In this document: positions 31,654-63,050 of the stretch, piece by piece
Layout: each line of letters starts with the position of its first letter
Numbering within the stretch: position 1 is the first letter of the stretch
Assembly: GCA_951812955.1 (NCBI GenBank)
Contig: OX638340.1
Coordinates: 448,001-512,000, forward strand
DNA from: an uncultured Gemmatimonadota bacterium
GTDB taxonomy: Bacteria; JAAXHH01
Direction: 5' to 3'
DNA: 64,000 bases
Position numbers and translations under genes: made by a program
Notes under the pieces: model-generated
Databases searched by the model: none
The model's input: only the letters and a program-made list of their open reading frames with translations
What the model was told of the DNA's origin: nothing

Positions 31654-31784
31654 TAGTTAATTCCTCCATGAGTTTAGATGCGGGCAAAGTGAGGGACCCC
31701 CGGAAGGTGTCACGCCGCATGGATGAATCGGTACTCGAATGAAAGACGCTGATCGACTCCAATGTTCATTAACCTGCCGTGTAC

Positions 31785-35467: not shown

Positions 35468-36265
35468 ATGGAACACCTCAGCTACATGCTGATCGATCCC
35501 CCAGCTCGATGGGGCGGGAGTATCGACGATACCTTCGGTTTCATAAGAAACAGCGGATATACCGGCGTGGAACTTAACCTCACACCGGAACTGGTGAGCC
35601 GGCTGGATGAAATCGAACGCGCTGCCCGCGGAAATCAACTGCGCGTTGTTTCCCTGCTCACGGGTGTGGCATACGAGGACGGGCTCTGTCTCAGCTCCCC
35701 AGATGAATCAATCCGCGAAATGACCGTCGCCCGTCTGGTGGAGAACCTGGAGACCGCGGAACGGTTCAACGCCATACTCGTGGTCGGATTGCTTCAGGGA
35801 CTGCGGTCCGATGAACCGGACCCGGATGTCGCCAACGAACGGATCGTCTCCTGCCTGCAGCTTGTTGGAAGGGAAGCGGAATCGAAAAGTATAGACATTG
35901 TGATCGAGCCGGTAAACCACCTTCAAGTGGGGTTCAATCACAGCGTGGGCGAGGTCCGTAAACTGATCCGCACCATCGGGTCGAGCGCTTTTCATCCCAT
36001 GGTCGATACGATTCACATGAATATCGAAGAGACCTCTCTCGTCAAGCCGATCCAAGACTGCGGCGCCAGTCTCAGGCACGTGCATCTCTGTGAAAGCCAC
36101 GGCGGCCTGCCGGGAACCGGCCGAATCGACTTCGCGGAAGTACTCCATGCCCTGAAAGGCATAAACTATCCGCATTTTGCATCGGTGAAGGTCTACCGAA
36201 AGGCCGGGTTGCGGGAAGCGGTGGAGCGGAGTATGGCTTACTTCAGGGGCTTGCGGTCGGGATAG
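35468..36265 (+). CDS. Sugar phosphate isomerase/epimerase (xylose isomerase-like TIM barrel)
   Basis: 265 aa with a xylose-isomerase-like TIM-barrel pattern (IVIEPVNH, HVHLCESHGG). Confidence 0.85.
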   Translation: MEHLSYMLIDPPARWGGSIDDTFGFIRNSGYTGVELNLTPELVSRLDEIERAARGNQLRVVSLLTGVAYEDGLCLSSPDESIREMTVARLVENLETAERFNAILVVGLLQGLRSDEPDPDVANERIVSCLQLVGREAESKSIDIVIEPVNHLQVGFNHSVGEVRKLIRTIGSSAFHPMVDTIHMNIEETSLVKPIQDCGASLRHVHLCESHGGLPGTGRIDFAEVLHALKGINYPHFASVKVYRKAGLREAVERSMAYFRGLRSG

Positions 36266-36393
36266 GCTTGCTGCCAGTGGCTTGCGGTCGGGATAGGCTT
36301 GCTGCCGGTGAATCGGGATAGGTGGGCCTCTCCGTAAGGGCCATTTCGGCTTTTGTGGATGACACGTCTTCAGGGCCATTCCGGCTTTTGCGG
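36248..36393. repeat. Two short tandem direct-repeat blocks at the junction of convergent genes
   Basis: A 31-nt unit ggcttgcggtcgggataggcttgctgcc(a/g)gtg in about 2.4 copies (36248..36322), overlapping the stop of the upstream gene. Then gggccatt(t/c)cggcttttg(t/c)gg twice, 35 nt apart (36338..36393). Confidence 0.6.
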
Positions 36394-37386
36394 GTGGCCG
36401 GTGCGGATGGATGCCAACCCCGCTTCGCATACCGCCACGACGCGCGCGCCGATTCGTGCCGGGATCGGGTTTTCCATTTTTCCGTCGAGCGTGTCCAGGA
36501 AGTCCACGACGGACCGGCCCCAGCCATGGCCGCCCACGGCGGCATCGTCCGAGGCATTGGGTAGTACGATCGGTTCCTTCCCGCGGCGGTACAGCTTGCC
36601 ATTCCATAGCGTCCCCTCGGTGCCATAGACGGCCAGCATGCCGCCTCCCATGCCTTCCCCCGAGCAGCCGCTGGTGACGAAAACCTTTCCGAGCACCCCG
36701 TTCTCGAATTTCAGCATGACGATATAGCAGTCGTCCGAGGGAAACTCGGGCACGCTCAGTTTGCTGCTGTAGGCGAAGACCTCGCCGACGGGCGAATCGA
36801 CTGTGGACAGGATGTTGTCTATGGGATGGCAGCCGCCGCCCAGGAGTATGTTCTGCGGGTTATCCCGGTCGATCCGCCACGGCGTGTGGCCCCGCCCGCC
36901 CGGATGGTAGATAGACCACATGTCGTGGATATAGTCGCCCTGGACAAAAAACACGTCGCCGATCTCACCCGATCGGGCTGCCATGGACATTTCCCGCCAG
37001 GGGTACATGTACCGGATAGTATGATCCGTCATCACCGTCCGGCCCGTCCGGTCGGCGGCGTCGATGATGCGGTGTGCGTCGGCGACGGTCGTGGCCAACG
37101 GCTTCTCCACGAGGGCGTGGGCGCCGAGTTCCAGCGCCATGACGGTCTGATCGGCGTGCAGGTGGTCCGGTCCGGCCACGGCGACGATGTCCGGCCGTGT
37201 TCTAGAGATCAATGTCCGAAGGTCGTCACCGGTAGCGGCATCGCGATAGAGCGACCTGGCCGCTGCAAGTTTCGCCTCGATGGGGTCGAAGAGGGCGGTA
37301 ACTCGGGCGCGGCCGCTTTGCTCGGCCACGTGCGCCACGTATTTGCCGGCGCTGCCGCAACCGCTCAGAAGTAAGGAATAGGACAT
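36370..37386 (-). CDS. Gfo/Idh/MocA family oxidoreductase
   Basis: 338 aa. N-terminal Rossmann region, an EKPLA motif, and the C-terminal GFO_IDH_MocA domain. Confidence 0.9.
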   Translation of the reverse strand: MSYSLLLSGCGSAGKYVAHVAEQSGRARVTALFDPIEAKLAAARSLYRDAATGDDLRTLISRTRPDIVAVAGPDHLHADQTVMALELGAHALVEKPLATTVADAHRIIDAADRTGRTVMTDHTIRYMYPWREMSMAARSGEIGDVFFVQGDYIHDMWSIYHPGGRGHTPWRIDRDNPQNILLGGGCHPIDNILSTVDSPVGEVFAYSSKLSVPEFPSDDCYIVMLKFENGVLGKVFVTSGCSGEGMGGGMLAVYGTEGTLWNGKLYRRGKEPIVLPNASDDAAVGGHGWGRSVVDFLDTLDGKMENPIPARIGARVVAVCEAGLASIRTGHPQKPEWP

Positions 37387-37413
37387 GTCAGTTATGGCCT
37401 CAACGAGCCGCGG

Positions 37414-38748
37414 TCACTTCATCTGCTCCAGCCTGGTCCGGTACTTGTCATACAGGTCGGTGTGCTTGCTGCTGATATCGACCGGCCGGCCCTGGATGAA
37501 GGCCCGTTCCACCTGGGTCATGATCTCGAGGGGGTCCCCGTCGGTCACGATCAGGGTGGCGTCCTTGCCCGTCTCCAGGGAACCGAGCCTGTCTTCCACC
37601 CCGAGGATACGCGCCGGATAGAGGGTGACGGATTTCAACGCCTCTTCCCTGGGCAGGCCGTAGGCCGCCGCGGTCGCGGCGTGGTAGGGCAGGTTCCGTA
37701 CGTTCGAACCGCCGCCGCCTTCGAGCCATACCCTGCGCTCGCCGATGCAGAAATCCAGGCCGGCTTCATAGAGTTTCAGGGCATTGGTGAACGGCGCGTC
37801 ATAGGCTTCCCAACGGCGAGCGGGCAGGTAATGCACGGCGCCGATGATCACAGGGATCGCGTTTTCCTTCAAGCGGTCCGCCACCCGCCATACGTCCGCC
37901 CCGCCGACCAGGACGATCTTGAGATCTTCGGCGAGGGCCCAGTCGATGGCGGCGTGGATCTGTTTTACTTCAGATGCGTGTACGAGAACGGGAAGTTCTT
38001 TCTTAAGCACCGGGATCATCGACTCCCAGCCGAGGTCGGAGGGATGAAACGGCCCGCCGGTGCGTTCGGCCTCCTTGGCGATCATGTATGCCCTGGCTTC
38101 GCGAAAGGCGTCGCGAAGTCTGGTAAGGGCTTCCCTGCGCGCTTCGACCTGCTTCTCCCGGCTGTCCGCACCGGGAAAATCGAATATGCGGTAGGATGGC
38201 CAGCGTACGTGAAGTCCCACCGTCGATTGCAGCGTCATTTCCTCAGTGGTCCAGCCATCCAGCGCGATAAGGCCGGAAAGCCCAGAGATCAGGCCGCCAC
38301 TGGGCATGGTCAGGGCGGTCAGTATCCCGTTCGCACGGGCAACAGGGAAGTACTCGCTGTCGGGATTCACGGCGGTAACCGCGCGGACGCTCGGGGTAAC
38401 GTCCCCGATTTCCACGTTGTCCTGGGTCGCCCGCACCGAGCTGATCTCGGTCAGTCCCAGGGTCGTCGGCGCGGCGATCAGCCCGGGATACACATGTTTC
38501 CCCGTAACGTCGATGACCAGCGTGTTTTCGGGCAGGGCCAGATCGGTCCCGATACCTGTTATAACGCCGGCATCAAAGAGCACCGTGGCGCCTTCGAGGA
38601 CAGCGCCGCTCACCGTATGCACGGTTCCGCCAGTCAGGGCGATGGGACGAGCCTGCGGCCCGGACGGTTTCTGCTTGGAAGCAGCCGCCTCGTGGACCAT
38701 GGGACCGGATGCGAGACCAGCAATCAACAATACAGCCATCGTTCGCAT
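37414..38748 (-). CDS. Amidohydrolase family protein (secreted metal-dependent hydrolase)
   Basis: Amidohydrolase fold motifs (GKHVYPGLIAAPTTLGL; the C-terminal D-loop region GKDATLIVTDGDPLE). The true start is uncertain because the 5' end holds a 36-bp tandem triplication with three in-frame ATGs (38748, 38784, 38820). The track ORF extends to 38892. Confidence 0.75.
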   Translation of the reverse strand: MRTMAVLLIAGLASGPMVHEAAASKQKPSGPQARPIALTGGTVHTVSGAVLEGATVLFDAGVITGIGTDLALPENTLVIDVTGKHVYPGLIAAPTTLGLTEISSVRATQDNVEIGDVTPSVRAVTAVNPDSEYFPVARANGILTALTMPSGGLISGLSGLIALDGWTTEEMTLQSTVGLHVRWPSYRIFDFPGADSREKQVEARREALTRLRDAFREARAYMIAKEAERTGGPFHPSDLGWESMIPVLKKELPVLVHASEVKQIHAAIDWALAEDLKIVLVGGADVWRVADRLKENAIPVIIGAVHYLPARRWEAYDAPFTNALKLYEAGLDFCIGERRVWLEGGGGSNVRNLPYHAATAAAYGLPREEALKSVTLYPARILGVEDRLGSLETGKDATLIVTDGDPLEIMTQVERAFIQGRPVDISSKHTDLYDKYRTRLEQMK

Positions 38749-38838
38749 CCAACAAGCGCCTGCGAGTACAGCCATTGTCCGCCTCCAACAAGCGCCTGCG
38801 AGTACAGCCATCGTTCGATTCCAACAGGCGCTGGAAGA
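38731..38838. repeat. 36-bp tandem triplication within the 5' coding end of the amidohydrolase gene
   Basis: Three 36-nt units (tacagccatcgttcgcatccaacaagcgcctgcgag and two near-identical copies). They encode RTMAVLAGACW(R/M) three times, each with an in-frame ATG. Confidence 0.8.
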
Positions 38839-38900
38839 CTTCGCCGAACGCCGCGTCCCCTGGATTGTCCGGGGCAATATCACCATCTCCAACCTCCATT

Positions 38901-38940
38901 CGCCGGGAAACCGGCCTGTCCGCCGGGAAACCGGCCTGTC
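38901..38940. repeat. Perfect 20-nt tandem duplication, each copy forming a 5-bp stem with a GAAA/UUUC tetraloop, between two amidohydrolase genes
   Basis: cgccgggaaaccggcctgtc appears twice. GCCGG-GAAA-CCGGC is a perfect hairpin. It lies immediately downstream of the stop at 38946. Confidence 0.7.
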
Positions 38941-38945
38941 CGGTC

Positions 38946-41936
38946 CTACGCCTCCGGCGACGCTTCCCCGGTCTCGGACGAACCTTCGTCCGCATCGGGC
39001 GACTTGAGCAGTTTCTGAATCAGTCTCGTTCTTTCTTCTTCCACTTCTTTCCTCATCTGCCTGTCTTCATCGATATCGAAGTATCTTCTTCCGTCGATCC
39101 AGGTCTGTTCGCATTTCGTATACGTGGACAGGGGATGGCCGTTCCAGATCACAAAATCGGCGTCCTTGCCCGGCTCGAGCGATCCGACCCAGGGATCGAT
39201 GGCCAGTTGCTTCGCCGCGTTGAGCGTGACGAACTTCAGGGCTTCTACCTCGTCGACCCCGCCGTATTTCACCGCCTTTGCCGCCTCGGTGTTCAGTCGC
39301 CGGGCGAGTTCATCGCTGTCGGAGTTGAAGGTGACCAGTACGCCCGCGTCGTGCATCAAGGCCCCGTTGTAGGGAATGGCGTCGTAGGCTTCCACCTTGA
39401 ACGCCCACCAGTCGCTGAAGGCAGAAGCACCCGCGCCGTGGGCGGCCAGTTCGGGTGCGACCTTGTACCCCTCCAGCACGTGTTGAAAGGTGCCGATCGT
39501 AAAACCGAAATCTTCGGCCACCCGAAGGAGCATCAGGATCTCGTCCTGCCGATAGGAATGACAGTGGACGAGACGTTCGCCGGCCAGGATCTCCTGCAGT
39601 GTTTCCAGTTCGAGGTCGCGCCGGGGAGGGACGACGCCGGATTTATCTTCCAGAGCGTTGTACCGGTCCCACGACTGTTGATATTCCCGGGCCGCGCGGA
39701 AACGGTCGCGGATGATCTGTTCGACCCCCATGCGGGTCTGTGGATAGCGGTCGCTGAGAATGCGCCAGTTGCTGCGCTTGACGTTCTCGCCCAGGGCGAA
39801 CTTGATCCCCGCCTTGGCTTCGGAGAATTTGAGTTCCTCGGGGCCTGTACCCCATCTCAGCTTGATGACCTGGTTCTTGCCGCCAATCGGATTGGCCGAC
39901 CCGTGCAATACATTGGCCACGGTGAGACCGCCGGCCAGCTCTCGGTACATGGCGATATCGTAGCTGTCGATGACGTCTCCGATACCCACCTCGGCGGTCA
40001 CGGCCTGCGTGCCCTCGTTGATGCCCTCCATGATGGCCGTGTGCGAATGGGCGTCGATGATGCCGGGCGTGACGTGCTTGCCGGTACCGTCGATTTCTAC
40101 GGCATCCTCTGGCGCTTCGAGGTTCGTACCCACCTCGTCGATTTTCCCCGCGCGGATCAGCACGTCCGCGTTTTCCAGTTTGCCCCGCTCGTCCAGCGTC
40201 CACACCGTGGCGTTCCGCACGACGAAGTATTCCGGCTGCGCTGGCGCGCTTTCTCTACCGAAGGCTCCGGGTGGATACAGCGCCGGCGGTTCGTCTGCCG
40301 CGGCGGACTTCGGAATCTCCAGCGTTACCGCTTCATGCTCCGCGATGCGTTCCGCTGACCAGCTCACGCTTTCGCCGCCGGGGCGGACCCCCCGGCCCGA
40401 GATCCGGTCTCCCTGGACAGAACCCGAAAAACGCCAAACACCGGCTTCACCCAGCGCTTCATGCTCAATGCTGAATGCGATTCGGGTATCGTCCAGGTCC
40501 ATGCGGACCGTCTTGATCGTGGTACCGTCTTTGTCGATGGTGCCCTTCGGCGAACCCGCCGATCCTTCAATGGCCAGCGACAGGCTGTCTCCCTGCAGGA
40601 CGATCAGCCACGTCCCCCGTGGATCGACTACCGGGCGTGGGGTGACCACGTGACGGTTACCCGCGACCCACACATCCTGCACGCGCACGCCCTCAGCGAA
40701 CAGGGGGCCGTCGGTAATCGTCATGTTGGCCAGTTTCCCGGACTCCAGCGTACCGAGCTGGCGGCTAATGCCAAGCATGGATGCAGGGGTCGTAGTCAAC
40801 GAGGCCAGCGCGGCTTCATAATCCAGCCCGTGCTCGATCGCTTCCCGCACCCTTTCGTGAAAGTCGGCGCTTTTACCCAGCCTTGTACTGCTCAGCGCAA
40901 TGGGGATCCCGGCCCGGTGCAATTGGCCCGGATTCCCGGGCGCCAGGTCCCAGTGCCGCAGTTCTTCCAACGTGACGTCCACGGCGTCTTCCGGCGTGGA
41001 TACGGAGAGATCTTCCGACCGTGGAAAATCGAGCGGCAGGATGACCGGCGCGCCCACTTCGCGCACCGCGTCCAGCATGCGGTATTCATGGCCGCTGCCC
41101 CGGACGAGGAATCGAAGTCCGAATTCATCCGCCAGACTGGCGGCACGCAGAAAGGCGTGGTCGTCATCGACACTCATGAGAACGGCCTGGCCGCGGGCGA
41201 TCACCCCGTCCAGCGCCGCCAGCGCGTCATTGTCCTCCGGGCGTTCCTGCTGGGGATTCTCTGCGAAAGCCGCATGGGCGTCCCGGTACCATTGCGCGTC
41301 CAGGATCGTCTGCCGTATGAGGGCCGCGACGCCCATCATGGAGGCCGGATAGGTGCGGTTCCGGTTTCTCTTCATGCGCAGATGCTGGAACACATCGCGC
41401 TTCAGTATGTTCTCGTTGGGCGATCCGGAACCCAGGTTCACCACCGCGCTGCTGCCAGAGAAAACTCCCCGATCGGCTACGACCATGGCCGCCGCGAAAC
41501 CGGATTTACGCAGCCGGGCGAGTTCCTGCTCACTGACGCGGTATGCTTCGCCGGCGGCGCGTTCAGGACGGACACCGGGATTCCAGTGGGTCGATCCCGT
41601 GGACTTCTCCGCTTCCTCTTCCGGCAGGCCGGCCTGTGTGAACATCTCGATCAATCCGGGATAAATGGTCTTGCCGGAATAGTCCCACCGCTGGGCGTCC
41701 GGTGGAATGTCGACGGACGCTCCGGCTTCCACGATCAGCCCGTCCCGGACGATCACGACGCCCCTGTTGATCACGAGATCGGGCCGGACGTAAATCCGGG
41801 CGTCCTCCAGGGCGTGGACGCGTGAAGGATTCTCCCGCAGTCCCGTCTGCGGCGCCGTCTGCTGGGCTTCCGCGGCAAGGGTGACCGCCCCGGACAGCAG
41901 CATGGCCTGGATCATGATCCAACAGGTTTTCAGCAT
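38946..41936 (-). CDS. Large two-domain amidohydrolase family protein with signal peptide
   Basis: Start at MLKTCWIMIQAMLLSGAVTLAAEA (ATG at 41936, with a perfect AGGAGG 6 nt upstream). Two amidohydrolase modules (GKTIYPGLIEMFTQAGL...; ...GIIDAHSHTAIMEG...). About 996 aa. Confidence 0.85.
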   Translation of the reverse strand: MLKTCWIMIQAMLLSGAVTLAAEAQQTAPQTGLRENPSRVHALEDARIYVRPDLVINRGVVIVRDGLIVEAGASVDIPPDAQRWDYSGKTIYPGLIEMFTQAGLPEEEAEKSTGSTHWNPGVRPERAAGEAYRVSEQELARLRKSGFAAAMVVADRGVFSGSSAVVNLGSGSPNENILKRDVFQHLRMKRNRNRTYPASMMGVAALIRQTILDAQWYRDAHAAFAENPQQERPEDNDALAALDGVIARGQAVLMSVDDDHAFLRAASLADEFGLRFLVRGSGHEYRMLDAVREVGAPVILPLDFPRSEDLSVSTPEDAVDVTLEELRHWDLAPGNPGQLHRAGIPIALSSTRLGKSADFHERVREAIEHGLDYEAALASLTTTPASMLGISRQLGTLESGKLANMTITDGPLFAEGVRVQDVWVAGNRHVVTPRPVVDPRGTWLIVLQGDSLSLAIEGSAGSPKGTIDKDGTTIKTVRMDLDDTRIAFSIEHEALGEAGVWRFSGSVQGDRISGRGVRPGGESVSWSAERIAEHEAVTLEIPKSAAADEPPALYPPGAFGRESAPAQPEYFVVRNATVWTLDERGKLENADVLIRAGKIDEVGTNLEAPEDAVEIDGTGKHVTPGIIDAHSHTAIMEGINEGTQAVTAEVGIGDVIDSYDIAMYRELAGGLTVANVLHGSANPIGGKNQVIKLRWGTGPEELKFSEAKAGIKFALGENVKRSNWRILSDRYPQTRMGVEQIIRDRFRAAREYQQSWDRYNALEDKSGVVPPRRDLELETLQEILAGERLVHCHSYRQDEILMLLRVAEDFGFTIGTFQHVLEGYKVAPELAAHGAGASAFSDWWAFKVEAYDAIPYNGALMHDAGVLVTFNSDSDELARRLNTEAAKAVKYGGVDEVEALKFVTLNAAKQLAIDPWVGSLEPGKDADFVIWNGHPLSTYTKCEQTWIDGRRYFDIDEDRQMRKEVEEERTRLIQKLLKSPDADEGSSETGEASPEA

Positions 41937-42008
41937 GATTCTCCTCCTGCAGAAAAGATTCAGATACTGATTAAAACCCAAAGCAGCACAATAACTTACT
42001 AACATTCA

Positions 42009-42548
42009 CTACATTAATTGTTCAATGACTTTGTCCAGTGCCTGGTCGATCTGGGCAGCGAGTGCTTTCCCGTCCAACCGGCCGATGGGATGATCGATCT
42101 CGACGATGGGATAGCCACCGTTTCCCAGTTGTTCGGCCATCACCCGTGCGGTGTGTGTGAAGTTGGACGTACAAAGCAGTGCGGCCGGTAGTCCAAGGTG
42201 CTCGAGCATGAGGACATCGTGCATGCTGCACGCGCTGCAGGACCCTCAGTCTCCGACTCCCACGAGTGCGAAATTGCAGCGCCTTACGATAAGATCGGTC
42301 ATCTCTTCTGACAGCACGCGACTTGCGCTTTCCTTGGTGTATTCAACCGAATCCACAGGATGGGCCAGGCGAATCGTTAACTGCTCGAAGAGGCCGCGCA
42401 GGATCACGTCGGAATTGGGCTTGCCGTTTCCCACCAGCGCGGCTGTGACATGCTGAACACCCAGGGGCCGCAGCGCCATGCGAAGGGTCGATGTGTCGGC
42501 CGAGGCCGTGGGATCAACGAGGGTTACCGACATTTTCACACGCTCCAT
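42009..42548 (-). CDS. UGSC-family selenoprotein, with the in-frame UGA at 42246..42248 read as selenocysteine
   Basis: Track ORFs 42246..42548 and 42009..42224 are in the same frame, separated only by TGA plus 7 codons. The minus strand reads ...GTC GGA GAC TGA GGG TCC TGC AGC..., which is VGD-U-GSC-SACS-MHDVLML..., and U-G-S-C is the eponymous family motif. There is hairpin potential just downstream of the UGA. The likely start is the second ATG (MSVTLV..., GGAG upstream). Confidence 0.7.
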
Positions 42549-42583
42549 GTTTCCGCGGAAGGCGGGTATTCAGTACGTTCCGT

Positions 42584-43603
42584 TCATTGCCTGGTGGTGC
42601 AGGTTGAGATCCAGCGCGTAACCGGCCGCGACCCTACGCCTCTGCCCGAACCCAGCCACGGCGGAATGATGGCGGAATGTCCGCCGGCCGATCCTCCAGC
42701 GAACATGATCCATATGCCATCCCGGTCCGGCGTCAGCGTGACGGGTTCTTCGGGACCCAGGTCGTCGTGCCTGCCCGTTGCCTGGATTTCACGTCCCGTG
42801 GCCGCCGTGCGTTCAAAAAGCGCTTCACGGATCATTTCACGAGTCCACCCGGCCCGGCTGAATACCGATCGGTGTTCCGGGCAGATGATGAATACGATGG
42901 CTGCGCCGGCGTAGTTGGTCGTCCGGGCGACGCGCGCAAACGAGTCGATCAGGCCATCGGGCTGGTCGTTAACGTGGTCGGCTACGGAGTGGGGTGCTTC
43001 GGCGGCAAGGACCGTGACGGCGTTTTTGTCCGGGGAAACGCCCAGTTCTTCGCCCTGGGTCGGCCATCCGGCGCAACGGGCTTCCGGCAGACAGTACGCA
43101 ATGCGTCCGGCATGGGCTATCGTCGCCCGGTCCAGGTCACCCGGCACACTGCCGACACCGTTTCGTATGACCAGGTTCAAGGCACGCCCCAGCGTCAGAT
43201 TGGACCGGTTGCCCGCACCGAGCACGGCCGTTTCCGGATTGAAACGCAACGACTCCACAACGGGACCGTGGACGATCGCCAGGGGGGCGGCGCCGCCAGT
43301 GCTGGCCGACGGTCCGACGATATTGAACGCCGGGTCCAGGATGGCCTCGACCGTGGCAAGGACGACAGGGAACAGCGAATCAGTGCATCCCGCCATAACC
43401 GCGTTCGCCGCCACCAGTTCGGCTGAGATGGATCTGTTCCGCTCAGGCACCGTGCCGATTTCACGGTCCGGTTCGATGCCGTGCGCATCGAGCATCCGAT
43501 CAATGCGATCGCGGACGGGCGGCACCACGGGAAGGCCATCCGACCAGCCCCGGTCGAAGGCGTATTCTATGGCATCAATTTCGGATTCGACCTGGTGGGC
43601 CAT
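42584..43603 (-). CDS. Hypothetical protein (unrecognised family) between the cytochrome c and the selenoprotein gene
   Basis: About 340 aa from the ATG at 43603 (the track ORF extends to 43702 but overlaps the upstream gene). No motif recognised. It starts 8 nt after the cytochrome c stop. Confidence 0.55.
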   Translation of the reverse strand: MAHQVESEIDAIEYAFDRGWSDGLPVVPPVRDRIDRMLDAHGIEPDREIGTVPERNRSISAELVAANAVMAGCTDSLFPVVLATVEAILDPAFNIVGPSASTGGAAPLAIVHGPVVESLRFNPETAVLGAGNRSNLTLGRALNLVIRNGVGSVPGDLDRATIAHAGRIAYCLPEARCAGWPTQGEELGVSPDKNAVTVLAAEAPHSVADHVNDQPDGLIDSFARVARTTNYAGAAIVFIICPEHRSVFSRAGWTREMIREALFERTAATGREIQATGRHDDLGPEEPVTLTPDRDGIWIMFAGGSAGGHSAIIPPWLGSGRGVGSRPVTRWISTCTTRQ

Positions 43604-43611
43604 TAGCAGCG

Positions 43612-44004
43612 TTACCTGCCGTAGTAGTTTTCCAGATAGGTAAGAATGGTTTCTTCGGTTTTCGAATCGAATTTCTTCAATCCCTTTTCCGCCTGCATCC
43701 AACGGATAGCATCAAGCCACTCCGCGCGGTTCGCCCGATAGGAACGGATGATCTGGGTAGGATGGCATTGGGCGCATTCCCTTTCCACGACGGGGTAGCC
43801 GTCGCCCATGATCAGCCGGGTCCGGTGGTTCAGTTCCAGGCCCGTTCGCGGGTCGAACATCGTTACGGGCTTGGCCGCCTCGGCCCTGGCATTGGCCTGT
43901 GCGACTTTCGATCGCTCCGCTTCGTAGTAGATCAGACCGACTACCAGGACATCCAGGATGATGACGAAGGCAAACTGGCCAAGTACGCGCAGAAACGAAT
44001 TCAT
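43612..44004 (-). CDS. Putative membrane-anchored mono-heme c-type cytochrome
   Basis: 130 aa. N-terminal TM helix (FAFVIILDVLVVGLIYY) and a single CAQCH heme-binding motif. AGGAG 7 nt upstream of the ATG. Confidence 0.6.
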   Translation of the reverse strand: MNSFLRVLGQFAFVIILDVLVVGLIYYEAERSKVAQANARAEAAKPVTMFDPRTGLELNHRTRLIMGDGYPVVERECAQCHPTQIIRSYRANRAEWLDAIRWMQAEKGLKKFDSKTEETILTYLENYYGR

Positions 44005-44052
44005 GGACCACTCCTGTGATTGTGCAGACAGGGATGTGCGGCTATACGGGTA

Positions 44053-46248
44053 CTAACGCGCTCTCGCGCCGATGGGGAGTCCGAACCCTATGTACCACGT
44101 TCGGCCCGCCGCCGGTTCGAAAAAGCGGTCTCCAAAGGCATTTGGGACGATGGAACCATTGTAACGGGTGTCGAACAGGTTGTTGACGCCCGCGAAGAGG
44201 ACGCCGCCGATCATGTCCCCATTATAGGTAATACCCGCACGTAAATCAAACAGCGCGTATCCCTCGTTGATGAAGTCCGATTTCGGCTTACTGCTTCCCG
44301 GTGCGGGACCGTTGAAGTCGTTGGCAAAGTACTCCGCGGTCCACTGCGCGTTCATTTCCACGAAGGCACCGCTGCAGGGGTGAGTGTATGTGATACCGGC
44401 GAACAGATGATGGGGTGGTACACCGGGCACTTCGTTGTCCGAAAGCTGGTACAGCCTGGTGTCACCTTCGACCTCCCGTTCGAGTTCAAAATCGCTGAAT
44501 TGGAACTGCATCCCCGTGTAGGCCAGCGCCATGTCGAGCGCGGGGAGTGGTGACCAGGTCAGCTTCAGTTCGATGCCCCGGTTCCGCGTCTGGCCGGCGT
44601 TCCTGAAGAAGATCTCGTCCGTCTCAGGATTGTCGATCTGGAAGGGCAAAAGCATGTTGCGGATCCCAAAGGCGAAAACGGCCGCGTCATAGGACAACCC
44701 GGCTTCCGGCAAAAATCCCTTCACACCTGCCTCGAATCCCCGCAGTTGTTCGGGTTCCAGGCCGGGATTGAATCCCCCGGCTTCCGTGGGCCGGTTGCTC
44801 AGTTCCGACGTGGTAGGGGTCTGGAAAGCCGTGGAAAAATTGCCGTAGAACGCCGTGAGGGGAGCCGGCCGGAATGCCACACCCAGCTGGGGACTGAACT
44901 GTGCCATGTTCCGTGTCCCAGAGTCGTCGGTCCGGTCGGAAAGATACCGGTCCGTCGCCTCGAACTTGAACCGGTCATAACGACCGCCGGCGGTTACGAT
45001 GATATCCGGCCACGGCGTCCATTCGAATTCCACGAAGGGTCCGATGCCGTCAACGTTTTCCTCCTGATCCAGCCTGAGATCCCCCAGCGAAAGTTCGTCG
45101 AATACGCGTCCGTCGTCCAGTGCGCCCACAAGGTCGCCGGGTATGCCCTCGTTCCCGTATTCAAGTCGTTCATCCCGCTGTATCTCCACGTCCATTCCCA
45201 AGGTCATTCTCAATCCGCCCGAACCGATTCCGGTCTGATGGCTGTAAACGCCCCGGGCTCCGGCGCCACGGCGGTCCAGGTCGATGACCCGTCCCGGGAT
45301 AGGGTTGAACAGCGAGCGCCCCATGCCGAACACCGTAATCTCTCCCTGCCTTCCTTCTGTTTCGTACCGCAAGGAAACGCCACCCTGGGCCTGCCTGACC
45401 CGCTTCGAAGCGCCCTGGCTCCGGACGAAGAACCTCGCGCCGGCGGGGTCCGTCTCGGCCGTGGCCTTGTCCAGCGAACTCGGATTGAACTGGTAAGGCG
45501 CGTTGAAGTAGTTGATGACGGTAGTCAGATGCCAGGTCTCGTTGATCGCACGTTTACCCACCACGTTGATCCCGGTCGACCGTGCGAAGGCGTGGTCGCG
45601 GTACCCATCGATCCATAACGTGTTGTAATTGACGAGAAACTGGTTGTCGCCGGCGCTGCCGGTTGCCTTGCCCTGTATACGCCGAAAACCGTGAGAGCCG
45701 GTGATGAAGCGCGGCGTGACTTGAAAAGGCCGGTCCGAAGCCTCCTCCGAGCGAATCTGGATGACCCCACCCGCCGCATTGCCGTAAAGCGATGAACTGG
45801 GTCCGCGAAGAACCTCGATCTGCCCTGCTGAAGTGAGGTCGAGGTTATTCAGCTGTGACTGGCCGTCGGCCATGGTCAGGGGAATGCCGTCCAGCACCAG
45901 TTTCACGCCACGGACGCCGAATGAAGCCCGGCTTCCCAGGCCCCGGATGCTGATCCGGTCGCCCTGGGACACGTTGTTGCGATTGTGCACGATAATGCCG
46001 GGCAGGCTGCGCACGCTCTCCTCCAGCGACAGCCCCGGTTCGGCAAGCTGAATCGCGTCCCGGTCCACCACGTCCACTGCGTAGGGTACGTCGAGCACGG
46101 GGCGGACGTACCTCGTGGCCCTCACCTCGACGGGCTGGAGGATGTAATCGACGGAAGCGTCGGTGGTATCCGGGTCGGACTGCTGCCAGGCGTTGGCGGG
46201 AAGCAGGTAGGACAGAATTACAAAACAAAAAGGAAGGAATGGTCTCAT
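44053..46248 (-). CDS. TonB-dependent receptor
   Basis: 731 aa. Signal peptide, plug-domain motifs (VVDRDAIQL..., IEVLRGPSSSLYGNAAGGVIQI), a beta-barrel, and a C-terminal aromatic residue. Confidence 0.9.
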   Translation of the reverse strand: MRPFLPFCFVILSYLLPANAWQQSDPDTTDASVDYILQPVEVRATRYVRPVLDVPYAVDVVDRDAIQLAEPGLSLEESVRSLPGIIVHNRNNVSQGDRISIRGLGSRASFGVRGVKLVLDGIPLTMADGQSQLNNLDLTSAGQIEVLRGPSSSLYGNAAGGVIQIRSEEASDRPFQVTPRFITGSHGFRRIQGKATGSAGDNQFLVNYNTLWIDGYRDHAFARSTGINVVGKRAINETWHLTTVINYFNAPYQFNPSSLDKATAETDPAGARFFVRSQGASKRVRQAQGGVSLRYETEGRQGEITVFGMGRSLFNPIPGRVIDLDRRGAGARGVYSHQTGIGSGGLRMTLGMDVEIQRDERLEYGNEGIPGDLVGALDDGRVFDELSLGDLRLDQEENVDGIGPFVEFEWTPWPDIIVTAGGRYDRFKFEATDRYLSDRTDDSGTRNMAQFSPQLGVAFRPAPLTAFYGNFSTAFQTPTTSELSNRPTEAGGFNPGLEPEQLRGFEAGVKGFLPEAGLSYDAAVFAFGIRNMLLPFQIDNPETDEIFFRNAGQTRNRGIELKLTWSPLPALDMALAYTGMQFQFSDFELEREVEGDTRLYQLSDNEVPGVPPHHLFAGITYTHPCSGAFVEMNAQWTAEYFANDFNGPAPGSSKPKSDFINEGYALFDLRAGITYNGDMIGGVLFAGVNNLFDTRYNGSIVPNAFGDRFFEPAAGRTWYIGFGLPIGARAR

Positions 46249-46305
46249 CGTGTACCGAATCTATATGGCGGGGCGGACGCTGGGCCCGCCACGCTTTGTT
46301 CACCA

Positions 46306-46935
46306 CTAATCCAATGCACGAATTTTGACATTCTTGAAACGGATTTTGCCCTGGCCGAAGGCCTGCAGCACGACGACGCCGCTGTAATGGGAGGAATCCT
46401 GGATCTTAACGGCTTCTTCCCCGTTGAGCGTGACCGTGATGTCGCGTCCGTCGGCGGTGATGACCATGGTGTTCCACTGGCCTTCGGTTTTCGGTGGCGG
46501 TTCGTATATGGCCAGCGCCACGATGCTGCCCGTGGTATATCCCGAGCTATGGGTGTCTGCGATATTGATCTCGTAGAAAGAATACTGATTCACCCTCGCC
46601 CCGGTATCGCGCGGTCCCCGGACGAATACGCCGCTGTTATGTCCGGCGTCCTGGTTGAACTGCACACTCAGCTCGAAATCGGTGAATTCGTCGTAGGTAC
46701 CGATGTATCCGGGACCCCGGCCCGTTACTTCACCGGTGAGCATGCCGTCCTCCACCGTCCAGGTTGCCGTTCCGCCCCGGTGGGTCCATCCCAGGAGGGT
46801 ATTGCCGTCGAAAAGGAGCTTCCAGCCCGCCTCTTTCTCGGCGTCGGTCAGCATGTTGTCCTGCGCGGCGGCCGTGCCGTGTATACCGACAAGGATCATG
46901 ACGGCGGCCGCCACGCTCCACATGTAGCGTTTCAT
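46306..46935 (-). CDS. DUF1080 domain protein (3-keto-disaccharide hydrolase-like), secreted
   Basis: 209 aa. Signal peptide. GWKLLFDGNTLLGW near the N-terminus and a C-terminal IRFKNVKIR region, typical of DUF1080/PF06439. Confidence 0.8.
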   Translation of the reverse strand: MKRYMWSVAAAVMILVGIHGTAAAQDNMLTDAEKEAGWKLLFDGNTLLGWTHRGGTATWTVEDGMLTGEVTGRGPGYIGTYDEFTDFELSVQFNQDAGHNSGVFVRGPRDTGARVNQYSFYEINIADTHSSGYTTGSIVALAIYEPPPKTEGQWNTMVITADGRDITVTLNGEEAVKIQDSSHYSGVVVLQAFGQGKIRFKNVKIRALD

Positions 46936-46983
46936 TGCGTATCTCCTCTGTTTTTCGTTTGCTCAGGCTCTCAGTCTTTCCGA

Positions 46984-48990
46984 CTATTCGCCTTCTTCTG
47001 CTTCGGGTTCTTCACCCAGTTTCAACGCGACCAGTTCGGCGGGATGGCCGCTGGCGCCTACGGTCATGATGATGTACTGCACGTCGTTATGCATATAGGT
47101 CATGGGCATGCCGCTCTGGGAGGCGGGCAGTTCGATTGAGGCAACGACCTCGCCCGTCGCCTTGTCGTAGGCATGGAAATACGGATCACCGCCGTAACCT
47201 TCACCGGCGAAGAGCAGCGTGCTCGTCACCAGGGAACCGATCCGGGTGGCCTTGCCGGTCTTCGGAAGATCGACACCGGCGAGCTCGGGCAGATCCTTGA
47301 TGGCCTGCGGCGTATCTCCGTTCGGCGCCATCCATACGTGGTCGCCCGAATTCATGTCGACCGCGGTGATGCGGCCCCAGGGCGGCTTGACCAGCGGAAT
47401 CTCTCCGAATACTCTCGGCGCACGCAGACCGGCCGAGAAGTAGTCCATGTCCGATTCTTCAGGATCCGGCGCACGTAACGCCAGTTTGGAAATGCTGGTG
47501 TTGGAGGGGATGAAGTTCACGCCGGAAACCGGATCCAGGCAGGTCATGTTCCAGTTGACCCCGCCATTGGCGCCCGGGATCTGAATCGTCCCGATCGTTC
47601 CATCCGGCGCCTCGGCAAGGGATGGAGGCTGGAAAAGCGGACCATACCGGTGATTCCCCATCAGGTTGATCGCTTCCTGGCGGACCGCAGGCGTGAAGTC
47701 GACCAGATCGTCCTGACTGATGCCCTGGTGTTCCCAGGGAGCCGGCTTGACAGGGATCGGCTGCGTGGGTGACGCCCGGTCGCCGGGCACGTCGCTCGCA
47801 GGAACGTCCGTCTCGGGCATATCCCAGATCGGTTCGCCGGTCACCCGGTCGAAGACATAGGAATACCCCTGCTTGGTGTTCTGGATAACGATCTTCCGAG
47901 CCTCGCCGTCGATCATTACGTCGGCCAGGATCGGCGCGGCGGGGTTGTCGTAATCCCAGATGTCATGGTGGACGATCTGGAAGTGCCAGATCTTCTCGCC
48001 GGTGTTGTAATCGACGGCCACCAGGCTGTTAGCGAACAGGTTGTCACCCAGGCGGTGTCCACCGTAATAGTCGTTCGTCGGCGCTTCGATGGGCAGATAC
48101 GCATAGCCCAGTTCCTCGTCGACTGAAATGGAGGTCCACACGCCGGCGTTCCCGGTATAGGACTTCGAATTCTGCTCCCAGGTTTCGGATCCTTCCTCGC
48201 CCTCCTCCGGTATGACCTTGAACTTCCAGACGATCGCGCCGGTTCGGGCGTCGTAGGCCACGACGTCACCAGGTGAATTGGTCATCGACCTTGGCCGGAA
48301 TCCCGCGGCGAGCGCGGGCGGAACGAGAACGAGATCCCCCACGACCGTCGCGGGAGACGTATTCGCCAGGTTGCCCACCGGGCTGACGTTTTCCGAATTT
48401 CGCCAGCCTTCCATCATGTCGACGACGCCGTTATTGCCGAAACCGGACACGGGGATCCCCGTATCAGCGTCTAGGGCTACCAGGTAGAATCCCCGGGTGA
48501 TCAGGATGACGCGGTTGTCGCCCTGGCCGTCGGTCCAGAAGGAGACGCCGCGGCCCGAATTGCGTCGGGGAGCCGAAGCCCAGCGTTCTTCGTCCTCGAC
48601 CGGCCGGTAGGTCCACATCGTCTCGCCCGTTTCAGGCTCGATGGCCATGGCACTGCGCCGCGTGCCCGCCGTGGAATACAGCATGCCGTCGACATAGATC
48701 GGCACAGGCTGCGCATAGAACTCGGGCCGGGGGCCGAAGTTGTCTTGTTTCCACGTCCAGGCGACCTCGAGACGGCCCACATTATCCGCGTTGACCTGAT
48801 CCAGCGGAGAATACCGCGTGTAGGCCAGGTCGCGACCGAGCATGCGCCATTCGCTGTCGGACTGCTCAACGGATATAATCCTGCCCGGCTGTCTCTCGAC
48901 CGCGGGTTCGCACGCTGAAACTACCAGGAACGCCAGAACCAGGCCAATCGCCGGGGGCGTCCATCGACACATACGGAAATATCGGATCAT
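46984..48990 (-). CDS. PQQ-dependent dehydrogenase (quinoprotein alcohol/sugar dehydrogenase family), lipoprotein
   Basis: Start at MIRYFRMCRWTPPAIGLVLAFLVVSAC (GGGAGG upstream). Eight-bladed PQQ propeller family features (the LEVAWTW/W-motif repeats, the ...DADTG... region). Confidence 0.8.
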   Translation of the reverse strand: MIRYFRMCRWTPPAIGLVLAFLVVSACEPAVERQPGRIISVEQSDSEWRMLGRDLAYTRYSPLDQVNADNVGRLEVAWTWKQDNFGPRPEFYAQPVPIYVDGMLYSTAGTRRSAMAIEPETGETMWTYRPVEDEERWASAPRRNSGRGVSFWTDGQGDNRVILITRGFYLVALDADTGIPVSGFGNNGVVDMMEGWRNSENVSPVGNLANTSPATVVGDLVLVPPALAAGFRPRSMTNSPGDVVAYDARTGAIVWKFKVIPEEGEEGSETWEQNSKSYTGNAGVWTSISVDEELGYAYLPIEAPTNDYYGGHRLGDNLFANSLVAVDYNTGEKIWHFQIVHHDIWDYDNPAAPILADVMIDGEARKIVIQNTKQGYSYVFDRVTGEPIWDMPETDVPASDVPGDRASPTQPIPVKPAPWEHQGISQDDLVDFTPAVRQEAINLMGNHRYGPLFQPPSLAEAPDGTIGTIQIPGANGGVNWNMTCLDPVSGVNFIPSNTSISKLALRAPDPEESDMDYFSAGLRAPRVFGEIPLVKPPWGRITAVDMNSGDHVWMAPNGDTPQAIKDLPELAGVDLPKTGKATRIGSLVTSTLLFAGEGYGGDPYFHAYDKATGEVVASIELPASQSGMPMTYMHNDVQYIIMTVGASGHPAELVALKLGEEPEAEEGE

Positions 48991-49246
48991 TACGCACTGC
49001 CTCCCATGATACAAATTAAATGATGCCGCGAATCGCATGGAAACCTGTCCGGATACGGGGATACCGGATCACACAGCAACAGGTCTGGCCTGCATGCCTT
49101 GGATTCCACGAATGCTCTGCAATTCAAACGCGATTTAACGCAAGTATCTCACCAATGTATTTGTCCGGATTACTGATGTAAAGCCCTTTGTGTCTGGTAC
49201 CGCCCGACGGCGCCGGTCTCGAAGGTGGTTTCACCGCGCAGGCGTC

Positions 49247-62931: not shown

Positions 62932-63050
62932 GATGTCAGTGGATTCCAGGAGAGGAGGGGGCTGGACTGCGTCCTACGTTACGCGTCAACTCTAGGCGTA
63001 CGTAAATCAACTGTACTATGTGTTCCCGGGCAGCTCAAGGACATAGGGAA

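Follow-up and report, generated by a model that had tools for sequence, protein, structure and literature searches.

A nine-gene row with a PqqU-type receptor and a UGSC selenoprotein is probably a lineage-specific juxtaposition of four conserved modules

The nine co-directional genes at positions 36370–49038 (minus strand) of the window, the whole 64,000-nucleotide stretch analyzed, are probably a lineage-specific juxtaposition of four separately conserved modules that share a strand. Module A (48990–43612) would be a periplasmic quinoprotein unit: a lipoprotein PQQ-dependent dehydrogenase (PQQ-DH), a DUF1080 protein that is exported, a PqqU-type transporter, and a cytochrome c anchored in the membrane. 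PQQ would be scavenged from the environment by the transporter, which would therefore supply cofactor rather than substrate, and electrons from PQQ-DH may pass to the cytochrome. Module B (43603–42009) would be a cytoplasmic two-gene unit in which a 339 amino acid protein (Unk) and a UGSC-family selenoprotein act jointly, probably as a complex; Unk would furnish the substrate site, and the U-x-x-C-x-x-C center of UGSC, related to the Sec-bearing C-terminus of GrdB/PrdB, would perform selenol/thiol redox chemistry. Module C (41936–37414) would consist of two exported amidohydrolases that together have one catalytic module and two degenerate ones, and module D (37386–35468) would pair a convergent xylose-isomerase-like TIM-barrel gene with a Gfo/Idh/MocA oxidoreductase of the cytoplasm.

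All nine ORFs are present in the order and on the strand given by an earlier sequence-only reading, and each of its family assignments holds by Pfam/NCBIfam profile matches and motifs, including that of the UGA-encoded UGSC protein. From PQQ-DH to Gfo, the gaps are 48, 57, 48, 8, 35, 72, 59, and 27 nt. The reported spacing of 8–72 nt therefore stands, whereas the additional gap of about 140 nt reported before the smaller amidohydrolase is probably 59 nt, because the start at ATG 38886 and the N-terminus MV(I/V)LPR are conserved in relatives (L001–L003). The same-strand run continues upstream to 63881 (about 20 genes and two tRNA-Pro), so co-directionality is not peculiar to the nine genes; the upstream boundary of the array is a gap of 208–256 nt. 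Promoter-like and terminator-like sites occur at chance level (7 vs. 5.2 expected, and 15 vs. 13.7 expected, respectively), and Rfam detects no element in the array, including no riboswitch. Because the gaps are short and no terminator stands out, the nine genes may be co-transcribed in this genome.

Conservation of the neighborhood was compared across about 170 related loci (numbered with the prefix L). In the genome scan seeded with unk, the whole array was found in L001–L003 only, which are Latescibacterota relatives with 81–83% identity, and the L003 copy lacks Gfo; outside these close relatives, the nine genes were essentially not found together. Relatives of Unk at 60–63% identity retain unk–UGSC alone. 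DUF1080–PqqU–cytochrome c–unk–UGSC is kept, at least partly, in L004, L085, L086, and L099 (62–66% identity), which have a GC content of 42–49% vs. 61% in the window. L086 (62% identity) retains all five of these genes, with PQQ-DH reduced to a 60 amino acid relic and an MFS transporter in place of the amidohydrolases, and PQQ-DH is likewise gone from L085. Neither cytochrome nor PqqU lies beside unk–UGSC in the other ~76 genome loci or in L081–L084, which have the same divergence as the block-keeping loci. Modules A and B may nevertheless be more than neighbors in this lineage, because the five-gene block persists in a second clade of very different GC content and the cytochrome c and unk ORFs, separated by 8 nt in the window, overlap in L086.

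The TonB-dependent receptor (44053–46248, minus strand) has Pfam plug and barrel domains and is a predicted PQQ importer of the PqqU type. Its top NCBIfam match is PqqU (307.7 bits, with 150 for the second family and a curated equivalog cut-off of 1200), and siderophore, heme, B12, and SusC models score two- to seven-fold lower. Among PDB entries, E. coli YncD/PqqU (6V81/9C4O) matches over the full length at E = 1e-70, compared with 1.5e-15 for the second-best TonB-dependent receptor. The published PqqU signature is Y/F/W99–R304–R365 (Munder et al., 2025; PMC12124388). In a 122-sequence alignment, Tyr99, Arg304, Arg365, and Lys274 of E. coli PqqU correspond to Phe110, Arg311, Arg361, and Lys282 of the receptor, and Arg536 is replaced by Glu545; the three-residue signature is retained in 69 of 70 full-length homologs. 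Other quinoprotein genes adjoin PqqU homologs in 13–14 of 80 metagenome loci, and about 66 loci have no such neighbor. These genes are either of the GSDH type (L089, L090, L092, L105, L112, L135, L141, L164) or eight-bladed (L135, L138, L143/L144, L160, L117; a relic in L086), two unrelated classes with the cofactor as their sole common feature. In the published study, colocalization of PqqU was examined only with respect to the PQQ synthesis operon, and quinoprotein neighbors are not mentioned (PMC12124388). The signature and the PDB match thus point to a receptor of the PqqU type that imports cofactor instead of substrate, and its cargo would be PQQ itself.

PQQ-DH (46984–49038, minus strand; PF01011, 585 bits) is a predicted lipoprotein of the eight-bladed class: a hydrophobic segment is present at its N-terminus, and an alternative start at 48990 yields the lipobox V-S-A-C. 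Its best NCBIfam match is TIGR03074 (glucose/quinate/shikimate family; 350.7 bits vs. a cut-off of 832), and because this match is restricted to profile positions 150–767, PQQ-DH lacks the N-terminal membrane domain. The closest PDB chains are quinohemoprotein alcohol dehydrogenases (at most 133 bits); vicinal Cys-Cys is absent from the sequence, and the motif HHDIWDYD resembles E. coli Gcd. The exported DUF1080 protein (46306–46935, minus strand; PF06439, 125.6 bits) belongs to the 3-keto-disaccharide-hydrolase family, has a signal-peptide-like N-terminus, and has uncharacterized "putative glycosyl hydrolases" as PDB relatives. The partners known for DUF1080 proteins are FAD- or NAD-dependent 3-dehydrogenases, with no PQQ enzymes among them. 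The earlier statement that DUF1080 proteins include 3-keto-disaccharide hydrolases agrees with the activity of BT2157 (PMC8121099) and with that proposed for Caulobacter CCNA_01705, which accompanies LacABC (PMC9007349); these enzymes work downstream of sugar 3-dehydrogenases (PMC8121099, PMC9007349).

The candidate mono-heme cytochrome c (43612–44004, minus strand) contains CAQCH once and is anchored by a transmembrane segment at its N-terminus. CxxCH and an RWMQ motif are conserved in six complete orthologs, and a seventh (L085) is cut by a contig end immediately before the motif; Pfam gives no match, and NCBIfam gives a weak SorB match alone (E = 0.0044). The sequence-only reading was right that c-type cytochromes are possible electron acceptors of periplasmic quinoproteins. 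The cytochrome may accept electrons from PQQ-DH, a proposal weakened because the cytochrome stays with unk–UGSC where PQQ-DH has been lost.

In module B, Unk (42584–43603, minus strand) is a predicted cytoplasmic protein of a family without a name and a conserved partner of UGSC; no Pfam or NCBIfam model matches it, and no structural relatives were found among solved structures. The UGSC protein (42009–42548, minus strand; 179 amino acids; PF24696, 143.7 bits; NF041046, 119.8 bits vs. a cut-off of 125) contains the motif GD-U-GSC-SAC, in which Sec is encoded by an in-frame TGA at 42246–42248; TGA occupies this position in 79 of 79 homologs from fetched loci. A SECIS-like hairpin (CGUGCA-GCA-UGCACG; 42218–42232, minus strand) begins 16 nt after the UGA. 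In the family alignment (A3), 89% of its cells are paired and four of eight pairs show compensatory changes; all 500 shuffles fell short of its covariation score, and slid controls were far lower. UGSC lies directly downstream of unk in 68 of 80 loci from many phyla; of 76 informative loci, 74 have it no more than 10 kb away. Fusions of the two also exist, and the fusion proteins terminate in ...GD, at the Sec codon; an AhpC/TSA–unk fusion likewise has UGSC next downstream. The family remained without an assigned function in reviews of 2022 and 2026, and the available text of the original reports records a "UGSC/Unknown_1" fusion from 2008 (Zhang and Gladyshev; PMC1976440, PMC2398784). To this known family is now added the observation that UGSC is nearly always preceded by an unnamed 340 amino acid gene, which in some cases is fused to it. 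By profile comparison, UGSC is a remote homolog of the GrdB/PrdB selenoprotein C-terminus: 15 of 23 UGSC members match the GrdB model TIGR01917 (best E-value, 3.6e-7).

The double amidohydrolase (38946–41936/42005, minus strand; 996–1019 amino acids) has two Amidohydro_1/3 stretches in Pfam and a signal peptide that starts after M24; the HxH metal motif (PGIIDAHSH) survives only in the C-terminal module. In its exported amidohydrolase-fold partner (AH492; 37414–38886, minus strand; Pfam), HxH is lost (PGLIAAPTT), as it is in the partners of L165–L167. Repeats had been placed upstream of this gene: the 20-nt repeat in two copies (38901–38940), a duplicated GCCGG-TTTC-CCGGC hairpin, is indeed intergenic, whereas the 36-nt repeat in 2.8 copies (38731–38831) is coding and triplicates part of the signal peptide in frame. 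Relatives have one copy or none at these sites. Gfo (36370–37386, minus strand; PF01408, PF22725, PF02894) has no N-terminal hydrophobic segment, and all its scores against NCBIfam equivalog models fall far below the cut-offs. The TIM-barrel gene (35468–36265, plus strand; PF01261, 104 bits) still adjoins Gfo in L001, L002, and L086; the two families are a common sugar-oxidation pair.

The sequence-only reading had taken the nine genes for one outer-membrane/periplasmic degradation system. In such a pathway, the substrate would enter via the TonB receptor and be oxidized by PQQ-DH, cytochrome c would take up the electrons, DUF1080 and the amidohydrolases would cleave the product, and the selenoprotein and Gfo would give redox support. 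Co-directionality, short gaps, the intact array in three relatives, and the position of DUF1080 enzymes after sugar 3-dehydrogenases are consistent with it, although the known partner enzymes depend on FAD or NAD and not on PQQ, and the intact relatives are too close (81–83%) for synteny to count. The array falls apart at 60–66% identity. The receptor bears the PqqU signature, unk–UGSC occurs in many phyla without the remaining genes, and the amidohydrolase pair stands alone in several bacterial lineages, including Ignavibacteria and Zixibacteria, and three distant lineages have it between unrelated flanking genes. Moreover, Unk, UGSC, and Gfo are predicted to be cytoplasmic, having no export signals, whereas the other six proteins have them, so the proposed chain would cross compartments. 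Synteny largely refutes the single pathway, which is very improbable.

A six-gene unit (PQQ-DH, DUF1080, PqqU, cytochrome c, unk, and UGSC) in a Latescibacterota-related clade is less remote, though still unlikely; the cytochrome could, for example, couple periplasmic quinoprotein oxidation to a cytoplasmic selenoprotein reductase, with the amidohydrolases and Gfo as later insertions. The block kept at 62–66% identity despite the difference in GC content, and the close or overlapping cytochrome c and unk ORFs, speak for it. However, unk–UGSC has neither cytochrome nor PqqU in most loci, L085 and L086 lost PQQ-DH and retained the rest, it is not obvious how a single-heme periplasmic domain on one transmembrane helix would reach a partner in the cytoplasm, and common ancestry alone suffices for the observed synteny. 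The receptor might, instead of PQQ, import the substrate of PQQ-DH or something that serves the quinoprotein, for example a lanthanide carrier or metal chelate. The PqqU score far under the cut-off, the replacement of Arg536, and the difficulty of inferring TonB-dependent receptor specificity from sequence (PMC12124388) leave room for this, but all three defining residues and Lys274 are present, other transporter models score lower, the array has no riboswitch, and homologs adjoin two PQQ enzyme classes sharing the cofactor alone; such cargo is improbable. The reading as four juxtaposed modules accounts better for these patterns.

Among known systems, the receptor is by far most like E. coli PqqU (6V81, 9C4O) in its plug and barrel and in its Tyr99/Lys274/Arg304/Arg365 equivalents, but is distant in sequence, scores below the NCBIfam cut-off, and has Glu for Arg536. 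Its host phylum has been reported with PqqU in the absence of PQQ synthesis genes (14 Latescibacterota; PMC12124388); its gene lies two genes away from a quinoprotein gene. PQQ-DH shares the eight-bladed PQQ propeller of TIGR03074 dehydrogenases and type II quinohemoprotein alcohol dehydrogenases (PDB 1YIQ, 1KV9), but is a predicted lipoprotein without their five-helix N-terminal membrane domain, fused heme domain, or vicinal disulfide. Both amidohydrolases have exported Caulobacter-type peptidases (NF051886, Xaa-Pro dipeptidase) as best NCBIfam match, at 42–90 bits vs. a cut-off of 500, and differ from them as a double-module protein with a degenerate partner. As in B. thetaiotaomicron BT2156–BT2160 and Caulobacter LacABC (PMC8121099, PMC9007349), the window has DUF1080, Gfo/Idh/MocA, and xylose-isomerase-like TIM-barrel genes. 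However, these are not clustered together: 9 kb separate DUF1080 from Gfo, the two proteins are predicted to occupy different compartments, and Gfo scores 31 bits against the BT_2158 family model (cut-off, 750). This co-occurrence is weak evidence because one more Gfo gene and at least three other TIM-barrel genes are present in the window. UGSC conforms to the known PF24696/NF041046 family (Zhang and Gladyshev; PMC1976440, PMC2398784) in GD-U-GSC, in-frame UGA, and downstream hairpin. It resembles GrdB/GrdF/GrdH/PrdB (TIGR01917/TIGR01918) in recurrent weak homology at about profile positions 316–411 of 431 and in the Sec-Cys redox motif, but has only 179 amino acids and scores far under the family cut-offs. 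Unlike in Grd/Prd reductases, a search for a GrdE/PrdA-like pyruvoyl partner, for GrdA, and for GrdC/D detected none of them, and the hosts of UGSC include many aerobic lineages.

Nine genes form a row on the minus strand of the window between positions 36370 and 49038, and ORF listing together with family scans bears out the order proposed by a sequence-only reading: a PQQ-dependent dehydrogenase (PQQ-DH), a DUF1080 protein, a TonB-dependent receptor, a cytochrome c, an unknown protein of 339 aa (here called the partner; 42584–43603), the UGSC selenoprotein (42009–42548), a large and a small amidohydrolase, and a Gfo/Idh/MocA oxidoreductase. Taking the likeliest start codons, successive genes are separated by 48, 57, 48, 8, 35, 72, 59, and 27 nt. 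The gap upstream of the smaller amidohydrolase, previously put at about 140 nt, is probably 59 nt, as relatives share the ATG at 38886 and the MV(I/V)LPR N-terminus that it opens. The minus-strand run extends upstream of the array to position 63881 and includes about 20 genes and two tRNA-Pro genes, which are all the tRNA genes found in the 64-kb window (ARAGORN). Promoter and terminator consensus scans give no more than chance and an Rfam search finds no element within the array, so the sequence gives no verdict on co-transcription. GC content is uniform (about 0.60) across the window, and thus there is no sign of an island. Just upstream of the array, a 593-aa ORF without a Pfam family (49859–51640) lies between HAD hydrolase and FAA-hydrolase genes; its product has no similarity to the 595-aa protein encoded upstream of the partner gene in one related locus (L083).

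Conservation of the array as one unit is confined to a single clade. A scan seeded with the partner family, taking one genome per species, yielded 80 loci with 10-kb flanks, which were searched by tblastn with all window proteins. The closest partner relatives (81–83% identity) come from three MAGs that share the array (L001–L003), of which one is Candidatus Latescibacterota and the others are unclassified; among the 80 loci the complete array is confined to these three, and the Gfo gene is already missing in L003. A locus with 65–66% identity (L004) keeps the receptor–cytochrome–partner–UGSC segment, and the remaining loci keep just the partner and UGSC genes; in relatives of 60–63% identity on long contigs, these two genes lie amid wholly different surroundings. 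Scanning metagenomes with the receptor family as seed likewise gave 80 loci, of which only L085, L086, and L099 (62%) have neighbors in common with the window. The order in L086 is a PQQ-DH relic, DUF1080, receptor, cytochrome c, partner, UGSC, an MFS sugar transporter, Gfo, PIG-L, and a convergent TIM barrel. The transporter occupies the place of the amidohydrolases, and the relic, at the syntenic position upstream of DUF1080 (8818–8997 of that locus), retains 60 codons from the C-terminal end of PQQ-DH, with 75% identity. This layout indicates that the amidohydrolases are dispensable to the block and that PQQ-DH has been lost from it.

The sequence-only reading took the row for one oxidative degradation system, to be recognized by a conserved neighborhood. 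The neighborhood is conserved in L001–L003 but not beyond their clade, outside which homologs of the nine genes do not co-occur, and a unified degradation pathway is not supported. Instead, three units of known kinds are present: PqqU with a quinoprotein, the UGSC selenoprotein locus, and the two paired amidohydrolases. This is a caution for similar cases: genes neatly lined up on one strand, closely spaced and from a phylum that has received little study, looked like a new pathway, and distant synteny splits them into modules of known kinds. The proposed outer-membrane or periplasmic location of the products likewise applies only in part. On a simple hydropathy reading, N-terminal hydrophobic segments are present in PQQ-DH (with a lipobox), DUF1080, the receptor, the cytochrome c (as a transmembrane anchor), and both amidohydrolases, but not in the partner, UGSC, or Gfo proteins.

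The receptor has the plug (PF07715, 76 bits) and β-barrel (PF00593, 149 bits) of a TonB-dependent transporter and resembles PqqU most closely. PqqU is the top NCBIfam model at 307.7 bits, two-fold above the next family (150 bits), although this score misses the equivalog cut-off of NF041535 (1200 bits). Escherichia coli YncD/PqqU (6V81, 9C4O) is a full-length PDB match (E = 1e-70), with the next TonB-dependent transporter at 1.5e-15. The defining residues of PqqU are Y/F/W99, R304, and R365 (PMC12124388; Munder et al., 2025). In a 122-sequence MAFFT alignment that includes E. coli PqqU, the receptor has F110 for Tyr99, R311 for Arg304, R361 for Arg365, and K282 for Lys274. Arg365 is misplaced by pairwise phmmer alignment (to Ile369) and assigned to R361 by the multiple alignment, in which R361 is conserved in 115 of 120 homologs. 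The signature is also kept in 69 of 70 full-length homologs from metagenome loci. No pqq genes are seen among the ORFs scanned in the 64-kb window, and 14 Latescibacterota are reported to have PqqU without PQQ synthesis genes (PMC12124388). Receptors of the SusC, siderophore, heme, and B12 types were considered as alternatives; their NCBIfam scores are 2- to 7-fold below that of PqqU, and a riboswitch was not found. For a SusC/SusD polysaccharide utilization locus in particular, TIGR04056 gives 44 bits vs. 368, and no SusD-like ORF is present. These sequence data support the prediction that the receptor imports PQQ rather than a substrate, and the imported PQQ would then load the adjacent lipoprotein dehydrogenase.

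Genes for PQQ enzymes lie close to PqqU homologs elsewhere as well, in 13–14 of the 80 receptor loci, with unrelated neighbors in most. A six-bladed dehydrogenase of the GSDH type is encoded directly up- or downstream in eight loci (L089, L090, L092, L105, L112, L135, L141, L164), and eight-bladed PQQ dehydrogenases are close by in L135, L138, L143/L144, and L160 and, at a distance of about 9 kb, in L117; L086 has the relic described above. In L135 (425–5811), the transporter gene is placed between the GSDH and PQQ-DH genes, with ORF ends abutting or overlapping, and in L138, L105, and L090, as in L135, a transporter with the PqqU signature directly adjoins a quinoprotein gene. As the six-bladed and eight-bladed enzymes have just their cofactor in common, this arrangement supports the idea that the receptor feeds its neighbor with PQQ, not with that neighbor's substrate. 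The PqqU study considered colocalization with the PQQ synthesis operon only and mentions no quinoprotein neighbors (PMC12124388). The presence of PqqU beside two unrelated PQQ-enzyme folds lends the recent proposal of a PQQ-scavenging lifestyle independent support from genome data, and PqqU adjacency provides a handle to predict which 'empty' quinoproteins rely on imported cofactor.

The PQQ-DH itself matches all 595 profile positions of PF01011 (585 bits), an eight-bladed propeller. The CxxCH protein sits two genes away and is retained in L086, L099, and L004, where PQQ-DH is lost or not seen. This 130-aa cytochrome may accept electrons from PQQ-DH, but it is retained without that enzyme in L086 and L099. 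DUF1080 is a predicted hydrolase by family match (PF06439, 125.6 bits), and its coupling to PQQ-DH is put forward as a hypothesis; we know of no PQQ-dependent glycoside 3-dehydrogenase as an enzyme type. The DUF1080 proteins described in the literature have other partners. The gene for BT2157, which hydrolyzes 3-keto-trehalose, accompanies those for an IolE-like TIM-barrel protein and two Gfo-type dehydrogenases (PMC8121099), and in Caulobacter, DUF1080 is paired with the FAD enzyme LacABC (PMC9007349). The DUF1080, Gfo, and TIM-barrel families of the BT2156–BT2160 3-keto-glycoside system are all present in the window as well. However, the window DUF1080 protein is exported and its gene is 9 kb from that of the cytoplasmic Gfo protein, so that the families are neither clustered nor in one compartment. 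Scores against the glycoside 3-dehydrogenase families BT_2158 (30.7 bits, from Gfo) and BT_2159 (22.8 bits) are far below the cut-offs of 750 and 650, and the window contains one additional Gfo gene and at least three TIM-barrel genes beyond the one beside the array. The separation by distance and compartment, the low Gfo score, and these extra genes weaken the link to the BT2156–BT2160 route. The Gfo protein and its TIM-barrel neighbor may form a cytoplasmic sugar-oxidation pair.

Several further features of the window concern these families. Paralogous pairs at 30835–33770 and 60949–63881 each consist of a DUF6785/DUF6784 membrane protein of about 660 aa and a xylose-isomerase-like TIM barrel, and the further Gfo/Idh/MocA gene is located at 27082–28161. 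Where the TIM-barrel and Gfo genes converge, ahead of the Gfo stop codon, a 31-nt tandem repeat of 2.2 copies (36244–36310; 94% match) covers the TIM-barrel 3′ end and the sequence just past it.

The amidohydrolase pair recurs independently of the rest of the array. Homologs of the protein of about 1000 aa (50–60% identity) occur in Zixibacteria, KSB1, Gemmatimonadota, Ignavibacteria, Bacteroidota, and Calditrichaeota, and in all three loci looked up (L165–L167), the large gene is followed directly by a gene for an amidohydrolase of 435–474 aa, with flanks that are otherwise unrelated. The canonical PGxIDxHxH metal motif is kept by the C-terminal module of the large protein alone in the window, L165, and L166; a search with this pattern finds no match in the large protein of L167. 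The N-terminal module visibly lacks the HxH motif in the window and L165 (the site was not retrieved in L166 and L167), and the small partner has lost it in all four sequences (window, L165–L167). Motif retention suggests a single catalytic module alongside two degenerate ones. Both proteins have signal peptides (N-terminal hydrophobic segments), and the pair would act as a periplasmic hydrolase. Two repeats accompany these genes. A 36-nt repeat of 2.8 copies (38731–38831), absent from L001–L003, triplicates 12 codons (…CW.RTMAVLAGA…) in frame within the signal peptide of the smaller protein. An exact 20-nt tandem duplication (38901–38940) with a GCCGG-TTTC-CCGGC hairpin is intergenic, just past the stop codon of the large gene; its unit is single-copy in L002 and L003, diverged in L001, and found nowhere else in the window.

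Of the three modules, the partner–UGSC pair is the by-product of this analysis most worth following. In 68 of the 80 partner loci, the UGSC gene comes directly after the partner gene in the same orientation, and in 6 it is elsewhere in the locus; a contig end cuts 4, and UGSC is truly missing in 2. The window protein belongs to PF24696 (143.7 bits vs. a cut-off of 25) and falls just below the cut-off of NF041046 (119.8 vs. 125 bits). An in-frame TGA (42246–42248; …VGVGD-U-GSCSACS…) is followed by 78 further in-frame codons, TGA occupies the U position in all 79 UGSC genes recovered, and a SECIS-like hairpin that begins 14–16 nt past the UGA is 89% paired, with compensatory changes in four of eight pairs and a covariation score unmatched by any shuffle. 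With 7,700 representatives at E ≤ 1e-3 and 5,056 at E ≤ 1e-10, the partner family is large, and none of 87 members matches any Pfam or NCBIfam model. A PDB fold search with the partner gives no match, nor does UGSC match PDB entries by sequence or profile.

The partner also occurs in variant forms. Proteins of 450–460 aa (P0366, P0372, P0394, P0433) are fusions of the partner with the N-terminal half of UGSC that end in …GD because gene calling broke off at the Sec codon, and tandem-duplicated forms reach 710–740 aa (P0361, P0362, P0364). Some members have an N-terminal AhpC/TSA domain, still with UGSC next. In one such case (L168, 1–6964), an AhpC/TSA–partner fusion and UGSC lie near a DAO + GCV_T gene similar to dimethylglycine/sarcosine dehydrogenases, a neighbor of interest only because UGSC resembles the selenoproteins of sarcosine and glycine reductases. 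Neighbor clustering across 83 loci reveals no recurrent third partner: no family exceeds 14 loci, and those ranking highest are SDR (14), MFS (9), NHL (8), and PQQ-DH (7, including the 3 close relatives). A link between PQQ-DH and the pair was considered, as PQQ-DH genes lie near it in Acidobacteria (L047, L069) and Alphaproteobacteria (L034, L050), and was rejected, as 4 of about 77 independent loci is roughly the chance level for paralog-rich genomes by our own, uncomputed estimate.

UGSC has been listed as abundant with function unassigned, and a 'UGSC/Unknown_1' fusion has been mentioned (PMC2398784, PMC1976440, PMC9312934, PMC13188914). For this family, an abundant orphan since 2005–2008, a near-obligatory unannotated partner gene, occasional fusions, and homology to the GrdB/PrdB C-terminus can now be added, which together make its function approachable by co-expression of the pair. 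The partner and UGSC would form a cytoplasmic selenol/thiol redox enzyme. It is tentatively proposed, as a possibility that we consider rather doubtful, that this is a widespread, obligately Sec-dependent two-subunit enzyme of many phyla, including aerobic ones, in which UGSC is a stripped-down catalytic relative of GrdB/PrdB and the partner is the substrate-binding subunit, whose fold has no relative among solved structures. If true, a function would be assigned to an orphan selenoprotein family that ranks among the most abundant in aquatic metagenomes. As a weaker addition, the pair might be functionally tied to PqqU and cytochrome c in the Latescibacterota-related clade.

The comparison with GrdB and PrdB shows both likeness and difference. 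No partner resembling the pyruvoyl proproteins of the GrdE/PrdA type is found, either among the 87 family members (Pfam, NCBIfam) or in PDB folds. GrdB and PrdB are full-length proteins of about 430 aa, whereas the window UGSC aligns only to the C-terminal 100 or so profile positions (16.4 bits vs. 602). Weak matches to this Sec-bearing C-terminal part of GrdB nevertheless recur in 15 of 23 UGSC proteins, with 12 matching GrdF and 10 the general selenoprotein-B model, and the best member reaches an E-value of 3.6e-7 against GrdB.
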